Source: an uncultured virus (IMG/VR IMGVR_UViG_3300034684_000282)
Taxonomy: Duplodnaviria; Heunggongvirae; Uroviricota; Caudoviricetes
Virus record (IMG/VR): IMGVR_UViG_3300034684_000282
Strand: one strand, 5' to 3'
Length of the DNA: 64,000 nt
In this document: in pieces, positions 1 to 41,825 of the stretch
Position numbering within the stretch: position 1 is the stretch's first letter
How the letters are laid out: each line of letters begins with the position of its first letter
Translations under genes and position numbers: made by a program
The notes under the pieces: generated by a model
Seen by the model: only the letters and a program-made list of their open reading frames with translations
Database searches by the model: none
What the model was told of the DNA's origin: nothing

Positions 1-30
1 ATTATTTGTTTTTTTATAAATTAATAAAAA

Positions 31-108: not shown

Positions 109-678
109 TCATCTTGTGAGAACAAAGTTGAAGTGTGTTGACTTAGTGAGCGCCGCAAACACCGGCACCGGGGAGGAGTTAAACTTTACACTGTACGAAC
201 TCTCCTTACCTCTAAAAACCTTGTGTGAGAACTTAACTACCGTGTCACCGATGCATACGTTTGGAGACTTGTTTGCAAAGTTAGTTAGATTCGCTACAGC
301 TACCCACCTTAGGTTAAGCTTTGCCCTAAGAAGGTTGGCTTTCAAGTACCGGACAACTTGGTAGTTCTTGTTTATTACCGGGTAGTCTTCCGTCTGTAGT
401 ACGTTGTACTGGAATATTTCAGTATCGTTAGTAGCGTTTAGTATGATGTTTCTACTTGAAAACACGTCGACAAACCTGACCTCGTACACGTCTGTATTAG
501 TGCTCTCCACAACTTCGTCAACTTCCGTAAAGTAGTACGTCAAGTAGTTGGGAGACGCTGCGTCCGTGTTAAACGTTAGCACTTTAGGCAGCGGTAAACT
601 GTTTTTCTGTAAACTTAATAGATCACTTATAGAAAGTAAACCCACTTCGGTATACACGTAGTTGTTAACGCTTAGCAT
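109..678 (-). CDS. Stand-alone degenerate Hint/intein-like fold protein
   Basis: Blocks LSVNNYVYTEVGLLSISDL / VYEVRF / LNATNDTEIF / WVAVANL / YSVKF / NFVLTR parallel intein blocks A, B, F and G but lack Cys1, the block-B His and the terminal Asn; AGGAG RBS. Confidence 0.55.
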   Translation of the reverse strand: MLSVNNYVYTEVGLLSISDLLSLQKNSLPLPKVLTFNTDAASPNYLTYYFTEVDEVVESTNTDVYEVRFVDVFSSRNIILNATNDTEIFQYNVLQTEDYPVINKNYQVVRYLKANLLRAKLNLRWVAVANLTNFANKSPNVCIGDTVVKFSHKVFRGKESSYSVKFNSSPVPVFAALTKSTHFNFVLTR

Positions 679-3029: not shown

Positions 3030-5696
3030 CTACCCTACCTCTAGCTCGGAGAAGCTAGCTCCCGTAGACGTGATTATAAACCTGTTGATTAGTCTCTCCG
3101 CAACCTTCGTCGGCTTGAGCCAAACCTCAGCCACCATGGTGTTGTTGTCTATGTCGAATGGGGTGTTCGTAGTCTCGTCGCAGACAACCTTAAACTCGTA
3201 CAAGCCCCGCCTCTGCTTGATATCCGACAGTAGGGGGTCAACCAGCTGCGTGTATTGAATCCAAGTAAGCCTGTCGTTAGGCTCAAACAGCAGGTACTTA
3301 GTCGCTGTTGCTAGTATCTTCGTAATGTATATTATCAGCCTCATAACGTTAACCCTGTCGAGCGCGGACGGTTTTCGCTGCAGCGTCTTCTGACCGTACA
3401 CTACGATCCCGTCCCCGGTAAAGTCACAGATTGGGTTGACCGCGTTTGTTCCCGTAGCGTAGAGTAAGTCTCTGTCGGAAACGTTCAGTCGTCTCTCAAC
3501 TTTCTGTACTTTAAACAGCCTACCGCGGTTTAACCCTGCAGGAGCGTTCCACACCTCGGCTACCCTGTCGTTGTACGCGAAGACGCTTACTATCCGCACG
3601 CTGGGCGGTACCCACTGCAATGACTCCGTGAACTCGTCGGAGATCTGGATCCAGGGGTAGTACAGAGCGGCAAAGCTGGAGTTTAAGGCGTTCTCGTTCA
3701 GCCAGCGTCCCGACCCGTTGTGCCAGTTAACTACGTCCTGAACCGTTAGACCCTGGGGAGGGTCAACGATGGCGAAGCAGTCTCCCCTCTCGTTCTCGCA
3801 GAGTTGAATTAGCTTGTTGATAACGGTTTTGTTTCCAGGAAAGTCCGGGCAAGCGATTAGGTTGATGTCGTACTGCTCTGCGTTGGCGAACTGGGAGAGA
3901 GCGCTGACCGCGGAGTACTCAGTGATGTTCTCAGCGTCGTCGTACCCACCGCTCAGCTGCAGCACCGTGTTTAGTACGGGGACAAACCCGGCTTCCTCGT
4001 TCTCTAGCTCTACGCTAACGTAGTTTGAGACAACGCGGTTTGTGACAAAGTTTCTGCTAGAGGGGTCGCTAAACTCAATGTTTTTAAACCTCTCGGAGGG
4101 CAGCTGGTTTGTGCTTAGCTCGGGTACCCACACGTCTAACCCGTAGTTTCCGAAGTCGTCTTTGCTAAACCGAACCTTTAAACCGTTGTAGTACTCTCCC
4201 TTGTAGAGGGAGCTGACGGTTCCCATCTTAGAAAGAAAGTCAACGGTGACTGTGTCACCCTCGCTTAGACTTGCTATGTAGTTAACCGAAACGTACCCCG
4301 TGTCGTAGTCAACAACGCCGTTGCCGAGACTCCCTACTAAGTTACCCTCGCCGTCGTCCGTCAGTACTACGTCACTCCCGACTTTTACTCGCACGCTTCC
4401 CCTGATGACCGGTCGCGCTGACAGCGTAGCGGAGGCGTTGCTGGAGGTGTCTCCACCCTCACCCACGGTTTTAATTACGTCTAAGTGCTTGGCCAAGTAG
4501 TCGGCTAGTATCTGGTACCCACCCTTAAGGGGGTAAGTCAGGGCTATGTCTATAGTCTTATTATCGTAGTCTACTTTGTTCTCCGACACTACAACGTCAC
4601 CCGTAAACTTGCCCTCCCCGTTGTCTTGAGCAACCACTGTTTCTCCCACTAACACCGACACCGAGTTAGGGTAGACAACGGTGTTTAGCGAGCCGATGTA
4701 CGCTCCACCGTAGGTGTACCCGTCGGGCGATGCAGTCCCTATAGTACCAAGAGTCTTAACCTTAAACGTGCTGTACTCGTAGGACGCCCTAAACACGTCT
4801 CCGACCTCAACGTTAGCGCTGCCCGAGAATGCCACTTCCCACTGCCCGGTTATAGCGTTAACGCTTCCACTTCCAACGGTAGCTTCGCTCGTGTCTTTTC
4901 CAACCAGCGTGTACTCGTTGTTTGTAGGCGTACCGGTAACGGTAAACGTGTAAGTGTCATCACTGACTTCAACGCTTAACTCAAATGTGTTTAGGTTGAC
5001 TAAGTTTCCGTGAGACAGCATGCCGGAGTACGTATAGTCTACCGAGTTAACGGTAGCTACCGTTAGCGTAGCTTCGCCGGACACGCTCTTTGTAACGGTG
5101 TTGTACTTAATTGAAACTTCCGACCCGTCAGTCACAACGCTCTCGTCTAGTGTAAACCTGTACTCCCCGGTATCGTAGTCTATAAAGTTTGGGTACAGTG
5201 AAATGTTGGGGTTTAACGCCGGTGAGAAAGAGCCGTGCCCGTCGTCCCTAACCGTTGTGTAGTTAGAGGGGTCGTTTGGGTCAACCAACCTTAGTTCGAG
5301 TGTTTCCGGAACCGGCGAGTAGTTTAGGGTAGCGCTGAATATGTAGCTGTTGTCGTTAGCCGCCGTGGTGACTAACTCGCCCTTAACCTCAACGGCCGTT
5401 GGGATACTAACCGTTGCTTTTCTAGCGGAGGGGCCCAGGGTTCTCGTGAACCAGAGGGAGCTACCGAACTCCAGGAAGCTAACCGCCGCTAAGCTACTGT
5501 ACTCACCGACTCTAGGGGTTCCGAACAAGTCGACAAACTGCCGCACCGACGAAACGAAAGTCGGTTCGGTAGGTCCCTTTCTCGTTTTTCCAACCAGCGC
5601 CAGTATAGACTGAGACAGCCTGGGAGCGTACAGGGAAAAATCTATAGTTTCAAAATACACTCCAGGACTCGCGTGGATAGGCATGTGTAACAACAC
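3030..5696 (-). CDS. Tail sheath protein (gp18-like) with repeated inserted beta domains
   Basis: N-terminal SPGVYFETIDFS and GKTRKGP; C-terminal YYPW, WNAPAGLNRG, NPI, GQKTLQ..SALDRVNV, FEPND; internal DDGxG..DYDTG repeats. Confidence 0.95.
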   Translation of the reverse strand: MLLHMPIHASPGVYFETIDFSLYAPRLSQSILALVGKTRKGPTEPTFVSSVRQFVDLFGTPRVGEYSSLAAVSFLEFGSSLWFTRTLGPSARKATVSIPTAVEVKGELVTTAANDNSYIFSATLNYSPVPETLELRLVDPNDPSNYTTVRDDGHGSFSPALNPNISLYPNFIDYDTGEYRFTLDESVVTDGSEVSIKYNTVTKSVSGEATLTVATVNSVDYTYSGMLSHGNLVNLNTFELSVEVSDDTYTFTVTGTPTNNEYTLVGKDTSEATVGSGSVNAITGQWEVAFSGSANVEVGDVFRASYEYSTFKVKTLGTIGTASPDGYTYGGAYIGSLNTVVYPNSVSVLVGETVVAQDNGEGKFTGDVVVSENKVDYDNKTIDIALTYPLKGGYQILADYLAKHLDVIKTVGEGGDTSSNASATLSARPVIRGSVRVKVGSDVVLTDDGEGNLVGSLGNGVVDYDTGYVSVNYIASLSEGDTVTVDFLSKMGTVSSLYKGEYYNGLKVRFSKDDFGNYGLDVWVPELSTNQLPSERFKNIEFSDPSSRNFVTNRVVSNYVSVELENEEAGFVPVLNTVLQLSGGYDDAENITEYSAVSALSQFANAEQYDINLIACPDFPGNKTVINKLIQLCENERGDCFAIVDPPQGLTVQDVVNWHNGSGRWLNENALNSSFAALYYPWIQISDEFTESLQWVPPSVRIVSVFAYNDRVAEVWNAPAGLNRGRLFKVQKVERRLNVSDRDLLYATGTNAVNPICDFTGDGIVVYGQKTLQRKPSALDRVNVMRLIIYITKILATATKYLLFEPNDRLTWIQYTQLVDPLLSDIKQRRGLYEFKVVCDETTNTPFDIDNNTMVAEVWLKPTKVAERLINRFIITSTGASFSELEVG

Positions 5697-19809: not shown

Positions 19810-21819
19810 ATGGACAGAAAAGACTACACGGCTCTCCTGTCAGAGAGAGTCTGGCCCAGGGTTGAGAGACAGCTTTTGGGTGGAATCGCTGACAGGGGGC
19901 TTCAGAGAAACTTGAAAACTGTTCTCGCTAACACGAGAAACGCGCTTTTGGCTGACACGTCAATGCAGAACATGGTATACCTCAGTGTGGGGTCATTTTA
20001 GCGAGAGCTAAAATAGCAAATCGGGTGAATTGCTGGGACTCTTTAGAGCCTCTAGTGCTACAGCGTAGTCGGTAACGACAAGCGCGAAAGCTCTAAAAAA
20101 CTTAGAGGATTAGGGAATCAGCAGCCGAGCAGCCAGTACACTGGTTGAAGGTCCAGAGACTACCGGAGAGATGCTCTTAGTTCTTAAGAGCGAGTTCTCT
20201 TAATAACCGGCTAGAGCGCCCGACCCTTAGTTATAAAGCTAAGGTGAAGATATAGTCCATCCCACAGCGAAAGCTGCGGACAAGATGCCCGAAAATTGTA
20301 CTACCGTTAGTTAGACGTCTCAACGTAGGGACCGCTGTAGGGTAACCTACAGTTGCAAATTCGGTGAATTGCTGGGAGCCTTTAGAGCCCTCGGTGCTAC
20401 AGCGTAGCTGGCAACGGCAGGCGCGAACGCTCTAAAAAACCGTAGGGATTAGGTAATCAGCAGCCAAGCTCCCGAAAGCGCAAGATAGTAGGGAGAAGGT
20501 TCAGAGACTAGAGGTTGAGCCAGCGCAGGCAATAACACCTCCTCGAGCGCCGAATAACTAAAGCAGTATAGCTTTAGTTAATGATATAGTCCACTCTAGG
20601 GTGAAAGCCTTAGGTAGAGTGCTTTCCAAAACTGATTGCGAATCAGATTATCTCGGTTCAGCCGCTCAACGGACCAACTGGGTGGATTCGGTTCCTTGAC
20701 GCATTTGTTGAACACATTAATCCAGCTACTGGCAACGTAAACATCTACCCCTGGTCTCAGGGTGACAGCACGTACTCTACACCGCAGAATGATTTAACGG
20801 TTGAAATTTCAGCTGATGGTACTGACACAAACTATACTGGAGTACTAAAAGACAGCGATAATAATATACTGGTACCGTCGGAGGGAACGCTCTTTGTGGA
20901 GATTGAAAGTTCCTCCGGTACGTGGACGAAGATAGCCGAGGCTGACAGGAGTGGAGTGCTTCACTCTCTGAGTTCCGCCTATAAAGTTATAGGTGTCGTT
21001 GACCCTAAAACACAAGAGTTTGTCGTTAACGTTACAGACTCAGCCGGCACCGTAGTCGGAAAAGCGCTTCGCTTTGCCTTTAAGGAAGACATTCAGAAGA
21101 ACATCCCGTTCGGCGACGGTAAGACCTACAACACGATGCGGTTTGAGATCACCAAGATCGCCGTCGAGGCTAAGACCCGTAAGCTGGGTGCCACGTACAG
21201 CTTCGAGCTCATGGAAGACTACAAGAACGAGTTCGGTGAGAACTTCGAGGACAAGATGGTCGACTACCTAACCACGACTATTCTGACGGAGGTCGACAGT
21301 GAGGTAATCGACACGCTGTTCAGTAAGGCTACCGTAAGCGGTTCTTGGGACGCCACGATGCCGATGACGTGGACTCGCGGTATCAACCAGTGGTACGAGA
21401 CGGTGCTGCCGAAGATAAACAAGCTGAGCAACTACATCTACCAGGCAACCCACGTCTCCGGAGCAACGTTCCTGGTCTGCAGCCCCGTTACGGCTACCAT
21501 CTTCCAGAGCCTGATGCAGTTCAGCGGTAACGGTACGCCGACCGACCAGATGAACGTCGGTACCGTCAACATCGGTACGCTCAGCGGCGTGTACAAGGTG
21601 TTTACGTCGCCGCTCTGCCCCGACAACAAGGTTCTGCTTGGGTTTAAGGGAAGCAAGCCTGAGGACACCGGAGCGGTGTACGCTCCGTACGTTCCGGTAC
21701 AGCTCCACCCAATCTACTACTCCGAAGGCATGCCCTCGGTCATGGCCAGGACCCGTTACTGGCTGGGTGTACTGCGGCCCGACTACTACGGGGTACTCAA
21801 CATCAACGGCACCATTTAG
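19810..21819 (+). CDS. Major capsid protein (gp23-like), spliced: join(19810..19982,20288..20320,20622..21819), 467 aa
   Basis: Splicing restores NMVYLPKIVLPLVRRLFPKLIANQIISVQPLNGPTG; exon 3 is open and in frame with 20896..21819 (EAKTRKLGA, YAPYVP, TRY). Confidence 0.93.
19983..20287 (+). ncRNA. Group I intron 1 in the MCP gene (305 nt, no ORF)
   Basis: P AATTGCTGGGA, Q AATCAGCAGC, R GTCCAGAGACTA, S AAGATATAGTCC; P1 ACCUCA/UGGGGU with a U.G pair at the 5' splice site; terminal G20287. Confidence 0.92.
20321..20621 (+). ncRNA. Group I intron 2 in the MCP gene (301 nt, no ORF)
   Basis: P AATTGCTGGGA, Q AATCAGCAGC, R GTTCAGAGACTA, S ATGATATAGTCC; P1 GUCUC/GGGAC with a U.G pair; terminal G20621. 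Confidence 0.92.
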
Positions 21820-30160: not shown

Positions 30161-30524
30161 TGCTTACCATTCCCTTTTCATTAATTATATCATATATTTC
30201 CTTATCTCTACTGTTTGTATCCGTGTAGTACGCCTCTACCTTCCTAGCGATGATTAAGCTCGCTAAGTCAGCGTACTTCAGCTTTATTAAACCTTCATCA
30301 TCGCTTGACACCGTAGTATCACCGCTTAGTGGCTTCGTCTTATACATCACGTGCATGTACACGTAGTCCTTGTCTTCAGTTATAACGTCTGAAAACAATA
30401 TCATCCCACCGACATATACCCTAATATTCTGGGTCTGGTCGGTAAAGTCTGACTTTACGATAAAGTACGTTGAGTTTCTATCCCGCTTAAACTTTAGCGC
30501 TGCTAGCAGCCTGTCGTAGTCCAC
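30150..30524 (-). CDS. Hypothetical protein
   Basis: ORF coupled to its neighbours. Confidence 0.7.
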   Translation of the reverse strand: MDYDRLLAALKFKRDRNSTYFIVKSDFTDQTQNIRVYVGGMILFSDVITEDKDYVYMHVMYKTKPLSGDTTVSSDDEGLIKLKYADLASLIIARKVEAYYTDTNSRDKEIYDIINEKGMVSSES

Positions 30525-31003
30525 TAGAAGTCAGACTCCCTTCTATCCTGGTAGTAGACGTTTAGTACTACGCTGTAGCAGACGTCCCTGTGCACGTCGG
30601 TGCTACCCAGCTGAAACTTGTAGTACCGGTCGTCGTAGGGAAGCTTAAGCTCAACGATGTCATCTTCCTTAGGGTGGTCGTCGAACTTCATGATTCCGTT
30701 TAGCGTAGTGTTTGTCTCTACCGAGTGTCCGTAAGCTTTGAGTACTTCGTTGAACCGGTTGTAGTCAACGTAAACGTGAGTGTTTACCGTGTGGTACAAG
30801 TCCTCGTCCGTATGGTACGTAGTAGGGGTGTCTTGATACATAGGGTCCAGGACGGGCTGAATCCCTACCCATTTTCTAAGCCTGCACGGTATACCGTACA
30901 GTTCGATAATCTCGTCAGCGTAGTGCCTGAGTAGCGGCTTGTCGTCTAACTCGTGAAATATCTCGTTAAAGTTGATCTCTGCCAACCTACACCACCATTC
31001 CAA
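30524..31003 (-). CDS. Neck/head-closure protein (gp14-like)
   Basis: EIIELYGIPC..DPMYQD..PKEDDIV. Confidence 0.6.
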   Translation of the reverse strand: MEWWCRLAEINFNEIFHELDDKPLLRHYADEIIELYGIPCRLRKWVGIQPVLDPMYQDTPTTYHTDEDLYHTVNTHVYVDYNRFNEVLKAYGHSVETNTTLNGIMKFDDHPKEDDIVELKLPYDDRYYKFQLGSTDVHRDVCYSVVLNVYYQDRRESDF

Positions 31004-31547
31004 ACCAGTCAGTTTGCTTGTCTTTTCGCATCGCAGCTAGCGTGTGCTCAACAGTGTTAAAGTAAGTGTAGACTCTCTTACCCCTATCGCTGTCGTAGCG
31101 CGAGAGCCAGTACAGCAAGGAACTCCTAGTGTCTACGTGTATAAACGACAGTTTACTACCGCTTTCAAGCTGGTTTAAACCGACGCAGTTAAAAACACCC
31201 GTTGCTTTTAGCAACACCTCACCGGCGTTTAACTTTCCGCATGTAGTAAAGTCAACGGCATCTCCGCTTGAGTGCAAGCTTGAGTTACACAGCTCAGTAC
31301 TTCTACCGCACTCTAGACAGCGGTAAGCGCTTACGATCCTGACCGGAGTGTTACCAATGCCAGACCTAAGCTTTTCCAGTCTGTCAAGTAAGCTCGCGCT
31401 TACTACTACTCTCCCGCAGTGTCGGCACTTAAACTCACCGACTCTAAAGTGTGGGGACAGGTGCCTACCGCTATAACGGTAACCGTCACTTACTCTAACG
31501 TATGGTGAGCGGTAAAGCCAGCTCCTACACTTTTCTACGACTGCTCT
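30987..31547 (-). CDS. Peptidase M15A family (D-Ala-D-Ala carboxypeptidase-like); frame open to about 31570 with no canonical start
   Basis: HLSPHFRVGEFKCRHCG..LLDRLEKLR..IVSAYRC..SLHSSGDAVD..FIHVDTR; the ORF track captures only the C-half. Confidence 0.85.
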   Translation of the reverse strand, partial: RAVVEKCRSWLYRSPYVRVSDGYRYSGRHLSPHFRVGEFKCRHCGRVVVSASLLDRLEKLRSGIGNTPVRIVSAYRCLECGRSTELCNSSLHSSGDAVDFTTCGKLNAGEVLLKATGVFNCVGLNQLESGSKLSFIHVDTRSSLLYWLSRYDSDRGKRVYTYFNTVEHTLAAMRKDKQTDWFGMVV

Positions 31548-32029
31548 AAAAAAGGGACGTCTTTCTTACTCTCCTCCATGGAGAAGAGAATAACGTTACT
31601 CACGAACAGTGTCTTCATGTTGTCACTAAGTTCAACGATGTAAAACTTCTGTAGGTCGTCCTCACCTAAGTCAGCTACAAAGTCAACCGTTAGGAAGCCA
31701 TTTATCGTGACGGCGTAGTCGTTGGGTGAGAAGTCTTCAACGTCTACAGCCCTACCGTCGGGCGTCATGATTTTTTGACCTGGGTATACTACAATATTAT
31801 GATCTTGCAGGCCCATGCCTGACACCCTAATCAGCTTACCGACAGCGGCGTCTATCTCCTGCATATTTAGTATATTCGAGGTTTCCTCACCGTTGGGCCT
31901 GAAACCCGCCACTCTGAAGTCTGAGTTGAGTAGTTCTTTCTTAAAACTGTCGTACACCGCGTAGGCTTGTACGTTGCCGTGCGATGTGTACAGCTCGGAG
32001 TTTTCGTGTACAATGAACCTTTGAGTCAT
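31535..32029 (-). CDS. Stand-alone degenerate Hint/intein-like protein
   Basis: VHENSELYTSHG / IVVYPGQKIMTPDGRAVDVEDFSPND / FYIVEL..TLFVSNVILFS. Confidence 0.6.
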   Translation of the reverse strand: MTQRFIVHENSELYTSHGNVQAYAVYDSFKKELLNSDFRVAGFRPNGEETSNILNMQEIDAAVGKLIRVSGMGLQDHNIVVYPGQKIMTPDGRAVDVEDFSPNDYAVTINGFLTVDFVADLGEDDLQKFYIVELSDNMKTLFVSNVILFSMEESKKDVPFLEQS

Positions 32030-32069
32030 TTCGTACTCTCCTTTAGCTTAACTACTTATAATATTAAGT

Positions 32070-34922
32070 TCAAAAATACTTAACTTTACTGCTTCTACTC
32101 TTAGACATAAACTTGTTAAACACACCGTTGCTCTTAGCGGTTACCTCAAACGGTAGCTGCCAGCCCAGTGCGTTGTAAAAAGACTCAACTGGCTTAATAA
32201 TTAGTCTTTCCTTCATCTTATCGTAGTCAACGTCAAGCTTACCCTCGATTAGCTGCCAGTACTGGCTTCCGTCCGGTACGGACAGCACGTACTCCTTCCT
32301 TTGGTTTAACTCACTATCACTCCATTTCTTAACGTATATGTACTTAACTTTACCGGTCTTAATCTTGTCAGTCTTTTTCTTAGCAAAGTAGTCGTTCCAC
32401 ACCCTGGCTCCCCTTATGTGAACGGGGAGGTTCTTGACGTATGAGTCGACGTTGTTCACCGATATGGGGAGAGCTATATCCTTTAGCTGGTACTCGTTCC
32501 TTAACCTCTCGCACTCTCGCACAACTATAGAGTCTACTCTGTCCTTACCATCAAGCTTTAGTATACTTAGCAAAACATTTTCTAAAAACGGTTTTAGCGC
32601 CTTCGGCGTGCTAGACCGTCTTAGGGATATACCGACGGACTTTAGCTTGTCTACCGGTACACCCTCGCTGAATATAATGTGTATGGCGTACGCTTTCTTC
32701 GCCACAAATATCCCCGTGTCGGCTAGCCACTCGTTCTTTATAGTCAAAAAATTATTAGACCTACTTACCCTATACTTGTAGAATATGTCTCTACACACCG
32801 AGTATATAGACTCGTTGATGTAGTCTTGACACTCCTTAGAGACAGCGGATATCTTCTTCAAAACTTCAGGGTCCCTCTCCGTTGGGTTGTAGTCTACCAC
32901 GCCCTCGAGAGTAAATATGATTGAGTCGGTGTCGTTCGTTATAACATAGTCTTTTTCCTGGCTGGCTTGTGTCTTACCGTTTAGAAACTTATTCAGGAGG
33001 TAAGAACACGTTCTTATCAAGAGCTGGCCCGTAGTTGTAATACCCTCCGATATGTCTAAGTTGTACAGCCTGAAGCCCTCGTTAGCCGTAGCCCCGTAGA
33101 CCGAGTTGTTGATGATTTTAACAGCCGTTTGGTAGACGTTGTACATGTTGTAGAGACTCTCGTTTCCCCGCTCTAAGTTGGCTAACATAAGCTTCTTATA
33201 CTTTTCTCTCGACTGCATTATGTCGTCGATAACCTTAGCGATAATAGCATCATCTTTACTCTGGTCGACTATCAGCCCGTTTGGTAGTAGGCAAAAGTTG
33301 TTGTCTCTCAGCCATCTCTTAAGGACCCCTAAGTTCTCAAACTTGCTCGGAAAACCCTTGTCTGTGTACAAGTCGTAATACTCAACTTCCATGTCGATAT
33401 ACTCTCTCTCAACGGACTTTAAGTTTACAGTACTCTTACTCTCAATATCTTTAAGGAGCCTAACGTCGTACTGCAGGTACTTCGGTAGCAGCTCGTCTCT
33501 AACGTACTCTAGACTGTCGATATTTAGCGCTTTTGCTATAGTGTAAGCGACTAGCTGCTGGTAGCAGTCTACCCTGCCGACCAATGTTTCGGTAGACAGT
33601 AAAAACGTTTTAACTATTGACGGGTATAGGGACTTAAAGTCTAGGTCAGACACCCACTTGAACAGTCCCTTAAGCGGTGGCTTTACGTACGCTCCTAAGT
33701 ACTTATCCTTCGAAGTGTGCTTTGGTTTTGATGGAAGCACGTAGTTCCAGCCGCTCTCCTCCCTACGCCTAACAGCCTCCATTAAGAGAAGGTTGTCTAT
33801 AACTCGAGTCTCGTAAAATATGTCCTGAAAGTTAACCTTTGAGATGTTTCTTATCGTAACAGCTAAGTTTATTATCTTCAGCTTGTCTTCCAGCATTGTT
33901 AGCAAGCGTACGTCTTGAACGTTGTACTTGCAAAACTTAGTAAAATCACTTAAGTACAAGTCGGACGGGTCAACGTACTCTTCGTCACCCGCGCCGTTGA
34001 TTAGCTTTGACTCGCCGAGTTCTTCCTCGGCGATGTACTTCAGCGCGTACGACGGTTTTTCGGTGTCGGTGTACTTCTTGTACAGCGTTAGCATGTCTAC
34101 AACGTCTATACCTGGGATAACGTTGTCCATGTCTAAGTCTTGGTTGTTTTCAAGCGCGTACCTAACCTTTGAGCTAACGTAGTCAAACGGGCTTAACACT
34201 CTAAGCCCGTCTACACCGATGTAGTCGACTACCTTCCTACAGATGTACGGAATGTCAAACTTAGAATTCCAAGCGGTTACAATGTCCGGGTAGTTCTTCT
34301 TAACAAACTGTATAAACGAAACGAGTAGCGCTTTGGGACTGTCAAAGAGGTATACCTCTACCTCACCGTACTCCCTTACTTCCTTCTCAACTTTCGCCTG
34401 CGCGACTGATCGCTTGTTAGCTTCGTCTCTAGTTAGCAAAAACCACGAGTAAAACTTACTCGTGTAGTTGTCGTATACCGTTACGGCGTTTATGTCGGCT
34501 AGGTTGTTCTTAAAGCTAGGCATGTTCCCGTCGGTGACGTAAGTCTCAATGTCTAGGTAGAATATTCTCGGGGATATAGTCGACGGAAACTCTACGTTGT
34601 AGAACGAGTCACACACAAACCTCTGCTCGGGTGACACGTCCGCTTCCCCGTGCGGTAGGTTGGATGACTTGTAGAGTTCGTACGCTTCCTTAGGGCTAAC
34701 GTACACTTTTACTAATTCTTCACCCGTGTTTAAGTGCTTGTAGACAGTATCGTTGACACCGTACCTACGGTATCTAGAAGACATAAAAATGTAGTGGTCG
34801 AAGGGAACTGAAGCGTAGTTAAGTCGGTGTGCCCCCCTCACCCTGTAGTACATGTCAATGCAGCGGTTCTTACTGTTATACTTTATCTTAGTAGGTAAAA
34901 AATTAATCTTTCTATGCGTCAC
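32070..34922 (-). CDS. polB: Family B DNA polymerase (gp43-like)
   Basis: DIET, WNSKFD, YNVQDV, DFKSLYPS, KIINNSVYG, NDTDS, KKAY. Confidence 0.97.
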   Translation of the reverse strand: MTHRKINFLPTKIKYNSKNRCIDMYYRVRGAHRLNYASVPFDHYIFMSSRYRRYGVNDTVYKHLNTGEELVKVYVSPKEAYELYKSSNLPHGEADVSPEQRFVCDSFYNVEFPSTISPRIFYLDIETYVTDGNMPSFKNNLADINAVTVYDNYTSKFYSWFLLTRDEANKRSVAQAKVEKEVREYGEVEVYLFDSPKALLVSFIQFVKKNYPDIVTAWNSKFDIPYICRKVVDYIGVDGLRVLSPFDYVSSKVRYALENNQDLDMDNVIPGIDVVDMLTLYKKYTDTEKPSYALKYIAEEELGESKLINGAGDEEYVDPSDLYLSDFTKFCKYNVQDVRLLTMLEDKLKIINLAVTIRNISKVNFQDIFYETRVIDNLLLMEAVRRREESGWNYVLPSKPKHTSKDKYLGAYVKPPLKGLFKWVSDLDFKSLYPSIVKTFLLSTETLVGRVDCYQQLVAYTIAKALNIDSLEYVRDELLPKYLQYDVRLLKDIESKSTVNLKSVEREYIDMEVEYYDLYTDKGFPSKFENLGVLKRWLRDNNFCLLPNGLIVDQSKDDAIIAKVIDDIMQSREKYKKLMLANLERGNESLYNMYNVYQTAVKIINNSVYGATANEGFRLYNLDISEGITTTGQLLIRTCSYLLNKFLNGKTQASQEKDYVITNDTDSIIFTLEGVVDYNPTERDPEVLKKISAVSKECQDYINESIYSVCRDIFYKYRVSRSNNFLTIKNEWLADTGIFVAKKAYAIHIIFSEGVPVDKLKSVGISLRRSSTPKALKPFLENVLLSILKLDGKDRVDSIVVRECERLRNEYQLKDIALPISVNNVDSYVKNLPVHIRGARVWNDYFAKKKTDKIKTGKVKYIYVKKWSDSELNQRKEYVLSVPDGSQYWQLIEGKLDVDYDKMKERLIIKPVESFYNALGWQLPFEVTAKSNGVFNKFMSKSRSSKVKYF

Positions 34923-38255: not shown

Positions 38256-41200
38256 CTATATAGTGCACGTTGGGCACGAAGTACCAAAGTGCATAAACTC
38301 CTCGATAGACGGGCTCTCCTTAACCTCCTCACAGTCATCCTCTGCAAGCTTCCTGCTGTCGTACAGCGACAGGTAGTACTTGTTCAAGTCGGCGAGCATC
38401 TTGCTAGCCGCGTCTGGGATACTCTTAACAACGATCTCCTTTCCCCTTAAAGACTTGTAGAACCAAACCTCGGACCCAGCTATGTCGCTCAGCGTGCTGA
38501 CTAAGTCCTCAATGTCTACTCCCGAGCGTAGGGCTAAGCTTATGACTCTACCCAGAGCCTCGGTTATGGACTTTAGGATACTCCCTGACTTACCTATCGA
38601 GATAAACGTTTCGAACATTCTCTTATCGTCGTCGAAGTTTGCCGTTATGTAGATTGAACCGTACGGGGAGCTACACTTCGTGGTTACTCCCTGCACGAAC
38701 TGCGGCCGCGGCCTGACCCTCCCCTTCTGACCCCCTGACTCATCCCTGTCTATCTTCTTAATCGGTTGCCCGCTACGCGAACCGTCCCTGTATATCGTGA
38801 CTCCCTTGATACCGTTGTCGAAACAGTACTCGTAAATTTTTCTAACGTCATCGACGGTTGACTCACTCGGCATGTTAACCGTCTTACTTATAGCGCTGTC
38901 GATGTACGGAGCGAAGACGGCAACCGCCCTAACGTGCTGCTCAGGCGTGATGTCGTGAGCCTTGACTAGCAACCCCCTCGCCTTGTTCTCCTCGTTGTAC
39001 AGCCGGTGGTAGTACGTTAGCTGCCGCCTCTCAGTGGGAGACACGACAACGTCTCTAGTCCACTCGTATGAAAAGTTAGGCTCGATTCCCGAGCTTGTGT
39101 TTAACAGTATCGATATCGTCCCGGTAGGTGCGATCGACAACCTTCTCGAGTTTCTCAAGCCACCCTTGCCCCTCTCAGTACTGAACACCGACTTAAACAA
39201 CTCTAAGACAAGCTCGTCGCTTACAATGTAGCTTCGGTCGTTGTACACGCACGCCAGTGCGTTCTTAAAGGACACGGGTAAGTCGGAGTTAGGGATAACT
39301 TCGCTTACTATACTGTCTATACTACTACTCGATATATCCGAGCCCCTCACAACCCTAGTTAGGTAGTTTCTCTCACCGCTCTCCTCGTCGAAGTGTGGGT
39401 AGGGTCCCTTCAACAAGGCTATGGCTGCGGATGCTATCAGGGAGTACTCGGCTAAAATTCTAGCAACACTCAGCGAGAACTCCTCGAACTCCCTCGAACC
39501 GTACTTAATCCCCATCATAATGCACGCGTCTGCCAACCCCATGATACCCAGTCCGACCGGGCGAATGTCCTTAGTATTCTTCTCTATCTTCTTCAGCGGG
39601 TAGTTTGTTACGTCAATAACTAAGTCTAGGTAGTACACCGACCGCAAGACCTGGTCCTTAAACTCCTTGTAGTTGAAGCTACGGTTCTCGTCTACGAACT
39701 CAGCTAGGTTGATCGACCCAAGGTTGCAGCTAGAGTCGTTAGGCAGCGGCTGCTCACCGCACTGCAGGCTGTTGACAAAGTACAGCTCCGAGTCGGTGCT
39801 GGTAGGTAGTACCGTGCAGATGTTGTGGTACTCGTCTACGGTACCGTTGTAGACCGTTTCCTTACCTATGTAGCTTATGCTTATAATCCTATTGTTGTAG
39901 TGCTGGGACGGTTTTCTCACCCTACCGTAGTCTTCCAACGGTAGCGGTTCCTCTAAAAGCTTAGCTTGTGCTTCACCCTTACTGTATTTACTAATTGATT
40001 CTTTTTTTTCTAATTGTTTATTTAGCTTAGCATTTAAATCTATACGACGTTTAGAAAATCGTTCTTGAATTTCTTTTCTTTTATCAGCTATTAGTTGTCT
40101 TCTTTCTTCACGTGTAGTACTACTGTTAGTTTTAAGAACGGCTAGTTTATGCCCACACTCCGAAGAACATGCGGAAATTTCTCTTCTATTAAAGGGAACG
40201 GTAAACTTTTTACCACAAACTTCACAGTATTTTTCTACGTAAATACTATTCTCGTTAATAAAACATTTTAAATCAGTGTACTGCTGGCATACTTCTAACT
40301 TTTTAGCCAACCTGTCCTGTAAATACCTATCACGTAGATTACTTATTTCTCTTTTAATATTGTCAACCACTGTATTATTATCAATATTAGTATATTTTTG
40401 TCTAAGTTCTGAACTTTGATTAAAATTACTCTTAATGGCTTCTCTTGTTTTTTCCTGAATTTCTAACCTATTCAACTCCACATCATGTAAAATTTTGCTC
40501 CCTACCCACAAGCTGTCGCCTGCGCGCAGCTCTGAAACCTCCTTGTACTCACCGCTCTCCGTCTTAAACTTGTGGTCCCCGGTTGCTTTGATAACGGAGC
40601 CGTCAAACAGTTTGATTTCATAAACATCCTTATCGTAGCCGGTAACCCTCGGGTTTCGCATTGTCTTGACAACGATATGGTTGTCGCTGTTCAAGCAGTA
40701 TACCGGTACGTCCTTACCCTCCTCGGCTAGCTGCTTAAACGCTACGGCGTTTCTACCGTCGGCTGTCGCTACTAGGGTGTCACCCGTCAAGCACGGGTTT
40801 GTAGCCTCAATACGATACCTCCCGTCACTCTTGAGCAAGTTGTCCCGGTTTGCCGTGTCGATAAAGAATAACCCAGGGTCTCCGTTCTTATGCGCGTTTT
40901 GACAGATCTTGTCCCACAGATTTCTCGCCTTAACGGTCTTTACCACGCGGCCTGAAGCTGGAGACACTAGGTCGTACACGCCGTCGCTTCTCAAAGCCTC
41001 CATAAACTTGTCGTCCACGGCTACGGAGATGTTGAAGTAGTTTAGGTTACCGTCGCTTTCCTTACATGAGACAAACTCCTCGATGTCCGGGTGGTGCACG
41101 TTAAGGATTCCCATCAGCGCCGCGCGCCTCTTTCCACCCTGAACTACACTCGAACCCATCGCGTTCCAGTTGTGCATGAAGGAGACCGGACCCGAAGCCC

Positions 41201-41825
41201 TGCCGCCGCAGCCGCCGGCTATCAGCGCTCCCTTCTCTCTCAAGTTTCCAAAGTTAGCACCGACCCCGCCGCCAAACTTTGAAATTATCGCAGCGTTCTT
41301 AACGCTGTCGAATATCCCCTCGATCGAGTCAGGAACCTCAATGGTAAAGCACGCGAACATCATCTGGTTCTTACTGTAATTCTTAGAAATCTTTTCATAC
41401 GTGTCTCTTATCTCTTCGTAATTCTCTCTAGCAAGTGTCTTGTAGAGGTACTTACTCAGCGCTTTGTTTGAGCTGATTCCAACGCCGGCCGAAAACAAAG
41501 TTGGGGAGTTAAACAAAAACCTGTGACTCATCATGTCGTTGTATATACTGTTCTCTATGTTTAGCACGTACTCTAAGTCCTCGTCAGGCATGCCTTCCCT
41601 GTACTCCCCGGCAGCGACAACCCTCGCGACTCTCCGGCACAGCTGGGAGTAGTTACTCTCCCTTTGCCCGTCGGGTAAGTCCATGAAATACCTTAGCTTC
41701 AAAACTTCCTGAGCGTTCTCGTCAACCTCTTTGTTCATGGTTACTAGCGGTGATGGCTGCGCAAACACCCTCTCCCTGTACAGCTTGCTTAAGGAAGCAC
41801 TGTCCGTAGGCAACGTATACTTCAC
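38256..41825 (-). CDS. nrdJ: Class II (B12-dependent) ribonucleotide reductase with intein
   Basis: FLFNSPTL, ACF, GGGVG, VQGGKRRAA, TNPC/GEQ, CNLGSINL, RPVGLG, IAPTGTIS, DSAISKT; C-terminal TSCPD-like domain. Confidence 0.95.
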   Translation of the reverse strand: MKYTLPTDSASLSKLYRERVFAQPSPLVTMNKEVDENAQEVLKLRYFMDLPDGQRESNYSQLCRRVARVVAAGEYREGMPDEDLEYVLNIENSIYNDMMSHRFLFNSPTLFSAGVGISSNKALSKYLYKTLARENYEEIRDTYEKISKNYSKNQMMFACFTIEVPDSIEGIFDSVKNAAIISKFGGGVGANFGNLREKGALIAGGCGGRASGPVSFMHNWNAMGSSVVQGGKRRAALMGILNVHHPDIEEFVSCKESDGNLNYFNISVAVDDKFMEALRSDGVYDLVSPASGRVVKTVKARNLWDKICQNAHKNGDPGLFFIDTANRDNLLKSDGRYRIEATNPCLTGDTLVATADGRNAVAFKQLAEEGKDVPVYCLNSDNHIVVKTMRNPRVTGYDKDVYEIKLFDGSVIKATGDHKFKTESGEYKEVSELRAGDSLWVGSKILHDVELNRLEIQEKTREAIKSNFNQSSELRQKYTNIDNNTVVDNIKREISNLRDRYLQDRLAKKLEVCQQYTDLKCFINENSIYVEKYCEVCGKKFTVPFNRREISACSSECGHKLAVLKTNSSTTREERRQLIADKRKEIQERFSKRRIDLNAKLNKQLEKKESISKYSKGEAQAKLLEEPLPLEDYGRVRKPSQHYNNRIISISYIGKETVYNGTVDEYHNICTVLPTSTDSELYFVNSLQCGEQPLPNDSSCNLGSINLAEFVDENRSFNYKEFKDQVLRSVYYLDLVIDVTNYPLKKIEKNTKDIRPVGLGIMGLADACIMMGIKYGSREFEEFSLSVARILAEYSLIASAAIALLKGPYPHFDEESGERNYLTRVVRGSDISSSSIDSIVSEVIPNSDLPVSFKNALACVYNDRSYIVSDELVLELFKSVFSTERGKGGLRNSRRLSIAPTGTISILLNTSSGIEPNFSYEWTRDVVVSPTERRQLTYYHRLYNEENKARGLLVKAHDITPEQHVRAVAVFAPYIDSAISKTVNMPSESTVDDVRKIYEYCFDNGIKGVTIYRDGSRSGQPIKKIDRDESGGQKGRVRPRPQFVQGVTTKCSSPYGSIYITANFDDDKRMFETFISIGKSGSILKSITEALGRVISLALRSGVDIEDLVSTLSDIAGSEVWFYKSLRGKEIVVKSIPDAASKMLADLNKYYLSLYDSRKLAEDDCEEVKESPSIEEFMHFGTSCPTCTI
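39762..40793 (-). mobile_element. Intein (344 aa) inserted at the RNR active-site Cys
   Basis: NP|CLTGDTLV..ATGDH..VYNGTVDEYHN..NSLQ|CGEQ. Confidence 0.93.

Follow-up and report, generated by a model that had tools for sequence, protein, structure and literature searches.

A conserved slip site predicted to append an M15 peptidase to a Hint-fold protein by -1 frameshifting in an uncultured phage

How a peptidase frame that lacks a start codon could be translated is the question raised by one locus in a 64-kb stretch of DNA (hereafter, the window) from an uncultured tailed virus. The window is the start of a 122,583-bp virus record (the whole genome, G000), whose gene content includes a T4-like tail tube and sheath, a terminase, a head protease, a major head protein and a family-B polymerase. 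Near-identical DNA occurs in runs from anaerobic digester, wastewater and sludge, and tblastn against 50,697 cultured-phage records returned 0 matches. Two hints of a host, a related contig (L050) in a Bacilli bin and a related protein (P0047) in a Paceibacteria bin, were dismissed, both being short contigs that are probably mis-binned. The locus lies between two conserved neighbours (Table 1). The polymerase was found upstream of the cassette at 10 of the 11 loci tested, the one locus without a match being L050, whose upstream DNA amounts to 468 nt only. The gene downstream looks by eye like a head-closure or neck gene, and an Atlas search gave DUF6093 as a lead (score 0.95, a weak recognition).

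The upstream ORF of the cassette, which encodes a Hint-like protein, ends with GTC CCT TTT TTA GAG CAG TCG TAG. Two overlapping heptamers lie within this sequence, both in the X XXY YYZ phase of the zero frame, and the original prediction had placed T TTT TTA here in the correct phase, as the sequence bears out. The -1 frame is free of stops from 31565 to 30987 (192 codons; its upstream bound is a TAA at 31568-31566), and its earliest ATG, GTG or TTG is a TTG at 31277, past the start of the match to the M15 profile PF08291 (31451-31131). Both the reading of the frame and the profile match thus agree with the earlier claim of a peptidase frame that has no common start until the middle of its domain. 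Among 163 ORFs of at least 100 aa in the 122.6-kb genome, this is the sole junction at which an in-phase heptamer is combined with a -1 frame of at least 100 codons past the stop; hence, the arrangement is not due to chance. Programmed -1 ribosomal frameshifting probably yields a minor Hint-M15 fusion of 347 aa (161 + 186 by prediction) beside the plain 164-aa Hint protein.

Table 1. Features of the Hint-M15 cassette and its surroundings, in window coordinates.
Feature	Position	Strand	Basis or remark
Tail tube; sheath	2404-2931; 3030-5696		~26 kb from the cassette
Downstream gene, TTG start, conserved neighbour	30524..30985	-	49-79% identity, 11/11 loci tested
M15 (Peptidase_M15_3) domain with ~45-aa C-terminal extension	30987..31508	-	PF08291, phrog_894
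TCA (Ser) where relatives carry ATG (M-P-Y / M-S-Y)	31506..31508	-	
-1-frame linker RAVVEKCRSWLYR	31509..31547	-	Alignments: matches relatives' conserved basic Trp segment (K-N-W-I / K-R-W-I/L) upstream of Met
Zero-frame ORF, 164 aa, Hint domain and acidic/basic tail ending V-P-F-L-E-Q-S	31535..32029	-	
Slip site C CCT TTT TTA	31547..31556	-	Overlapping heptamers C CCU UUU (31556-31550) and U UUU UUA (31553-31547)
Internal SD-like GGAGGAG, candidate 5' stimulator	31571..31577	-	
Shine-Dalgarno AAGGAG of Hint ORF	32038..32043	-	Sequence
TATAAGTA, T4-late-promoter-like octamer	32053..32060	-	Weak lead only
Family-B DNA polymerase, conserved upstream neighbour	32070..34922	-	phrog_262, E 4e-151

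If the arrangement serves recoding, its parts should be found together in relatives. Protein and pattern scans recovered 27 contigs besides the window, 25 of which were evaluable; L006 ends within the Hint gene, and L051 is a chance match to the pattern. A heptamer of the form U UUU UU(A/C/U) lies in phase, 4-19 codons ahead of the zero-frame stop, in all 25 contigs, and in all 25 a stop-free -1 frame runs into the M15 gene at the same offset. Together with the window, these contigs fall into nine lineages (Hint identity 21-82%, M15 identity 31-77%), every one with an in-phase U UUU UUN. The T run counts six T in four lineages and seven in five, and never more than seven, while the linker measures 13-25 codons and differs between lineages by whole codons only. 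The chance of such agreement over nine lineages was put at 4e-7 for the open linker, 8e-5 for the slip-making choice of codons and 1.5e-4 for the shared offset, rough figures that are overstated since the lineages share descent. At a control junction, from the M15 gene to the neck-like gene, all three offsets are used across eight lineages (4, 1 and 3). Conservation of heptamer, phase, frame offset and open linker in 9/9 lineages supports the -1 recoding that had been read from the window.

The two proteins bear marks of the same arrangement. C-termini of the form x-F-F or x-F-L occur in 21 of 24 aligned members of the Hint family (the exceptions are P0026, P0027 and P0029), with P, D, N, G, H, S or T as x, and every one of these residues has codons able to end in U. 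A redundant set of 34 further cluster members ends in the same way without exception. A pattern derived from the M15 protein matched 15 viral contigs, all previously found, and the Hint gene and slip arrangement were present in 15/15. Upstream of the Met found in relatives, the -1 frame of the linker shows conservation at the protein level (K-N-W-I, K-R-W-I/L or R-S-W-L), which separate initiation would not require. Amphipathicity of the linker reached P <0.05 in 3 of 14 rows, and the window was not among the three. In L041, L045 and L052 the zero-frame tail continues for 19 codons beyond the slip site, such that both frames are coding over ~50 nt.

Homopolymer runs are error-prone, and the T run of the slip site is of this type; a single in-frame Hint-M15 gene from which one T went missing during sequencing or assembly would look the same. 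This reading is already refuted by independent contigs, and its chance of being right is negligible. All 25 related contigs have the same layout, as do contigs from independent runs, and an indel in the T run, which the original prediction had singled out for checking, was absent from the latter (contigs, not reads). No indels were listed across 30900-32045 in contigs of runs X5, X6, X7 and X9, or across 31380-31700 in contigs of X8, X9, X12 and X15. The site itself is bridged by four contigs (X6 record 8, X9 record 19, X12 record 3 and record 5 of the RNA library X15), and it is free of substitutions and indels in the strain contigs, with substitutions occurring elsewhere (seven other runs); being based on contigs, this comparison would hide rare variants. 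In-frame Hint-M15 fusions were likewise absent from 26 phmmer matches and from 7,979 longer candidate proteins, the latter being weak evidence. Three long phmmer matches, at E 3e-7 or weaker, proved to be repeat proteins and not fusions (P0034 was left out of the reading). An RNA polymerase that slips in the run of six or seven T and adds one U would give the same fusion as a ribosomal shift, and we regard this as unlikely. It would be in keeping with a T run as the conserved element and with the lack of 3' structure in most lineages. However, bacterial polymerases usually need longer runs for slippage. The run here never exceeds seven T and its codon phase is always X XXY YYZ, a constraint for which slippage would have no need; the SD-like and hairpin elements lie at ribosomal spacings; and the X15 contig, from an RNA library, has no indel, though rare variants are hidden in contigs. 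A precedent exists in many IS elements, for which transcriptional slippage is described as the alternative to ribosomal frameshifting (PMC5009743, excerpt).

The remaining rival dispenses with recoding altogether and holds that the peptidase is a separate gene, coupled in translation, with its own ATG in relatives, and that the window's lineage uses a non-canonical start or is decaying. In 8/8 other lineages the M15 frame contains an ATG, 15-27 codons beyond the slip site, the window alone having TCA there. This ATG is preceded by a strong SD in L005, L020 and L028 (-8.7 to -12.1 kcal/mol, against a genome median of -6.6 for long ATG ORFs) and by none in L037, L040, L044, L041 and L050 (about -3 kcal/mol). 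Moreover, strains X9 and X12 carry a GTG at codon 22, which is where gene callers start P0007 and P0008. Of the findings that the original prediction had counted against itself, in-frame fusions were not found, but homologues do have start codons of their own (an ATG in 8/8 other lineages, three of them with a strong SD); even so, these ATG-bearing relatives retain both the slip site and an open linker. Separate initiation does not account for a heptamer that is always in phase, an offset that never changes, a linker that stays open or the conserved Trp motif. In the window, no near-cognate start upstream of the domain in the M15 frame has a usable SD; the only CTG candidate has none (-3.1 kcal/mol) and would cut into the domain. 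Upstream of codon 22, the segment S-P-Y-V-R-V shows conservation at the protein level. The frame and zinc ligands are intact in all strains and in P0007 and P0008 (92% and 74%). We therefore consider a locus free of recoding very unlikely. Frameshifting in all lineages, with an extra internal start in some, fits the sequence evidence, and in the lineages of the relatives a free peptidase may also be made from the internal ATG. Since the M15 tree clusters the window with the three SD-bearing lineages (97/96, the branching order inside being unresolved), the window's lineage has probably lost an internal start.

Variation among strains bears on the two frames in different ways. In X12, a zero-frame CAG has become TAG, giving an earlier Hint stop, and the -1 frame is still open. 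Codons with silent and replacement changes in the M15 frame, counted at the listed sites only, stand at 7:6 in X7, 4:7 in X9 and 6:6 in X12. These variants are without strong silent bias and alone give no proof of selection; no stop codons or ligand changes in the M15 frame were among those listed.

Signals that might stimulate frameshifting differ between lineages. The internal SD-like GGAGGAG of the window ends 14 nt ahead of C CCU UUU and 17 nt ahead of U UUU UUA, the latter distance being outside the 9-14 nt optimum; an internal SD 9-14 nt 5' of the site is known to stimulate -1 shifts (PMC5009743, excerpt). An SD-like duplex of -9.3 to -15.5 kcal/mol was found between positions -25 and -9 upstream of the slip site in eight of the nine lineages, L028 being the only one without. 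Against a null of synonymous recoding, the motif was significant in L050 alone (P 0.004; window P 0.42), and Fisher's method gave a combined P of 0.006 across lineages that are related. On the 3' side, where a stimulating structure would be expected at a spacing of 5-9 nt, a hairpin lies 4-7 nt past the slip site in L005 (z -3.4) and L028 (z -1.3); most other lineages have little 3' structure, and no 3' structure is conserved. A downstream stem had been proposed as stimulator in the window, and this part of the original prediction did not hold up. The stems exist, but TACCGCT begins 32 nt past the heptamer, which is too far, shuffled versions of the 80 downstream nt fold equally well (z -0.95), and both stems are altered in strains X9 and X12. 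From sequence, the 5' SD-like motif is the likelier candidate stimulator. The efficiency is expected to be low, because U UUU UUA and U UUU UUU are described as far less shift-prone in E. coli than A AAA AAG (PMC5009743, excerpt), and phage P2 shifts at TTTTTTG (U UUU UUG) with no hairpin (PMC3091744, excerpt).

Searches of Pfam, PHROG, NCBIfam and PDB sequences failed to recognise the zero-frame protein, apart from one family member that matched PF01079 at E 0.08. A first AlphaFold model, built with 7 rows (pLDDT 55), gave intein matches that were non-significant. With 24 rows, the model reached pLDDT 90, with a Hint domain at residues ~6-150, and it matched inteins and Hint domains in Foldseek (E 6e-7, TM 0.71). 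In structural alignment (Z 16.6, rmsd 2.5 A over 141 residues), residues 6 to 150 of the model cover an intein from residue 1 to its end. The complete fold is shared with inteins, BIL domains and hedgehog Hint domains (PDB 8ubs, 4o1s, 2lwy and 1at0; Z 14-16.6, rmsd 2.2-2.5 A). The earlier Hint-like call is thereby confirmed at the level of predicted structure, with the correction that the catalytic Cys, His and Asn are absent. Ile6 stands in place of Cys1, Phe149-Ser150 replace His-Asn and block B reads Y-P-G-Q, and none of the Hint catalytic residues is conserved in the 24-row alignment of the family. Unlike the known domains, the protein lacks the N-terminal Cys/Ser, the block-B TxxH and the terminal His-Asn, and only five residues precede the domain; it is therefore not expected, on the model, to splice or cleave. 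With catalytic residues absent, the protein would work, if at all, by binding, and we infer a role in binding or as a scaffold. Near the tail tube gene, the start of another ORF (109-678, minus strand, 189 aa) resembles by eye Hint block A in degenerate form; the idea that it encodes a second Hint-like protein was rejected, with an hhalign probability of 0.2% against the Hint family.

The peptidase matched PF08291 at E 5e-9 (36.7 bits, against a curated cut-off of 23.2) and phrog_894 at E 6e-17. His95, Asp102 and His140 (numbered from 31556), which we take to be the zinc ligands from the M15 family motif, are invariant in 6/6 rows. A profile search gave 1lbu, a muramoyl-pentapeptide carboxypeptidase, at E 0.005, and the likeness to 1lbu and MepK is weak. 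The S-x-H...D and H-x-D motifs are shared with M15 proteins (PF08291, the Streptomyces zinc D-Ala-D-Ala carboxypeptidase 1lbu and MepK) and with the catalytic domain of phage M15A endolysins (PMC5025407, excerpt). In contrast to known M15 enzymes, the present one would be reached by a frameshift and has an N-terminal Hint partner and a family-specific 45-aa C-terminal extension. Its PHROG label is endolysin, and its neighbours are the polymerase and the neck-like gene. The genome encodes a separate endolysin with GH108 and PG_binding_3 domains (G000 87802-88380) and a gp5-like baseplate spike (G000 68880-70088, plus strand; L070) whose C-terminal domain, in frame, is M15-like but scores below the Pfam cut-off. 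Given these two proteins, the fusion is probably accessory and is unlikely to be the main lysin; the original prediction had it as a lytic or wall-editing enzyme.

An octamer upstream of the Hint ORF, TATAAGTA, weakly hints at late expression. It resembles the late promoter of T4, whose consensus is TATAAATA. TATAA[AG]TA has 22 matches across the genome, and L041 has the identical octamer upstream.

Returning to programmed frameshifting, we envisage the following course. Ribosomes would arrive at the slip site near the end of the Hint ORF and would be slowed by the internal SD-like motif on the 5' side or, in L005 and L028, by the 3' hairpin. There, tRNA-Phe and tRNA-Leu or tRNA-Phe would re-pair at -1, and a minority of ribosomes would step back one base and translate on through the short basic linker to the peptidase. 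The window's lineage would depend entirely on this slip for the enzyme, and in L005, L020 and L028 an internal SD and ATG would also yield free peptidase. The rate of slipping would then fix the share of Hint copies that bear a peptidoglycan-cutting domain, providing a low-dose accessory activity that is either virion-borne or late. In a broader and more tentative scenario, which we think is somewhat less likely to be true than false, an intein was domesticated into an inactive structural adaptor, and ribosomal frameshifting, in place of protein splicing, sets the share that carries a wall-cutting enzyme. Lineages would tune the output by exchanging 5' SD and 3' hairpin elements and through gain or loss of an internal start, with the result that each locus yields two or three products.

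Comparable systems are described in other phages. The tail-assembly chaperones of P2 (E/E+E') and lambda (G/GT) are made by -1 frameshifts (PMC3091744 and PMC5009743, excerpts). As far as those excerpts go, the common element is an infrequent -1 shift, close to where a short ORF ends, that gives a minor, C-terminally extended product, and P2 shares the U6 run and, with most lineages here, the absence of a 3' hairpin. The present cassette departs from P2 and lambda as excerpted in that its products, a zero-frame protein with a Hint fold and its extension by an enzyme, are not tail chaperones. Nor does it lie, as G/GT genes do, between the major tail and tape-measure genes: tail tube and sheath are ~26 kb away, and it is flanked by the DNA polymerase gene and the neck-like one. 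Frameshifting also adds C-terminal domains to capsid or tail proteins of T3, T7 (gene 10), Lactobacillus A2 and Listeria A118/A500 (PMC5009743, excerpt), and thus provides a fraction of copies with an extra domain, as is predicted here. In those phages, as that excerpt describes them, it is a major structural protein that gains an Ig-like or non-enzymatic part, whereas here a predicted peptidoglycan peptidase is placed on a small Hint-fold protein. The open-licence PMC and bioRxiv literature contained no description that we could find of a Hint-M15 frameshift. The Hint-M15 cassette would be a case of phage -1 frameshift domain extension, itself a known phenomenon. The frameshifts known from phages either adjust the supply of tail chaperones or equip structural proteins with surface domains; the Hint-M15 shift would ration an enzyme and would reveal what an inactive Hint fold, a type of domain with obscure roles, can be used for. 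The nine lineages offer nine natural cassettes with a common slip site and differing candidate stimulators and internal starts, which can be tested with reporters. Gene callers cut short or overlook a peptidase of this sort, and hydrolases of this kind are likely under-counted.

Several other features of the genome deserve mention. The major head protein gene contains two tandem group I introns (19973-20279 and 20309-20613, plus strand; RF00028, 76 and 90 bits), which are separated by a gap of ~30 nt, and neither contains a long ORF. An RNR-like ORF of 1189 aa (38256-41825, minus strand) appears by eye to contain an intein with an internal insertion. Near the start of the record lies a run of more than 20 A (window 1-30, plus strand), possibly an assembly end artefact. 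Lastly, about eight paralogous repeat-protein genes whose products start with SL(K/R)DL...LPEE form a tandem array at G000 98825-106268 (plus strand).
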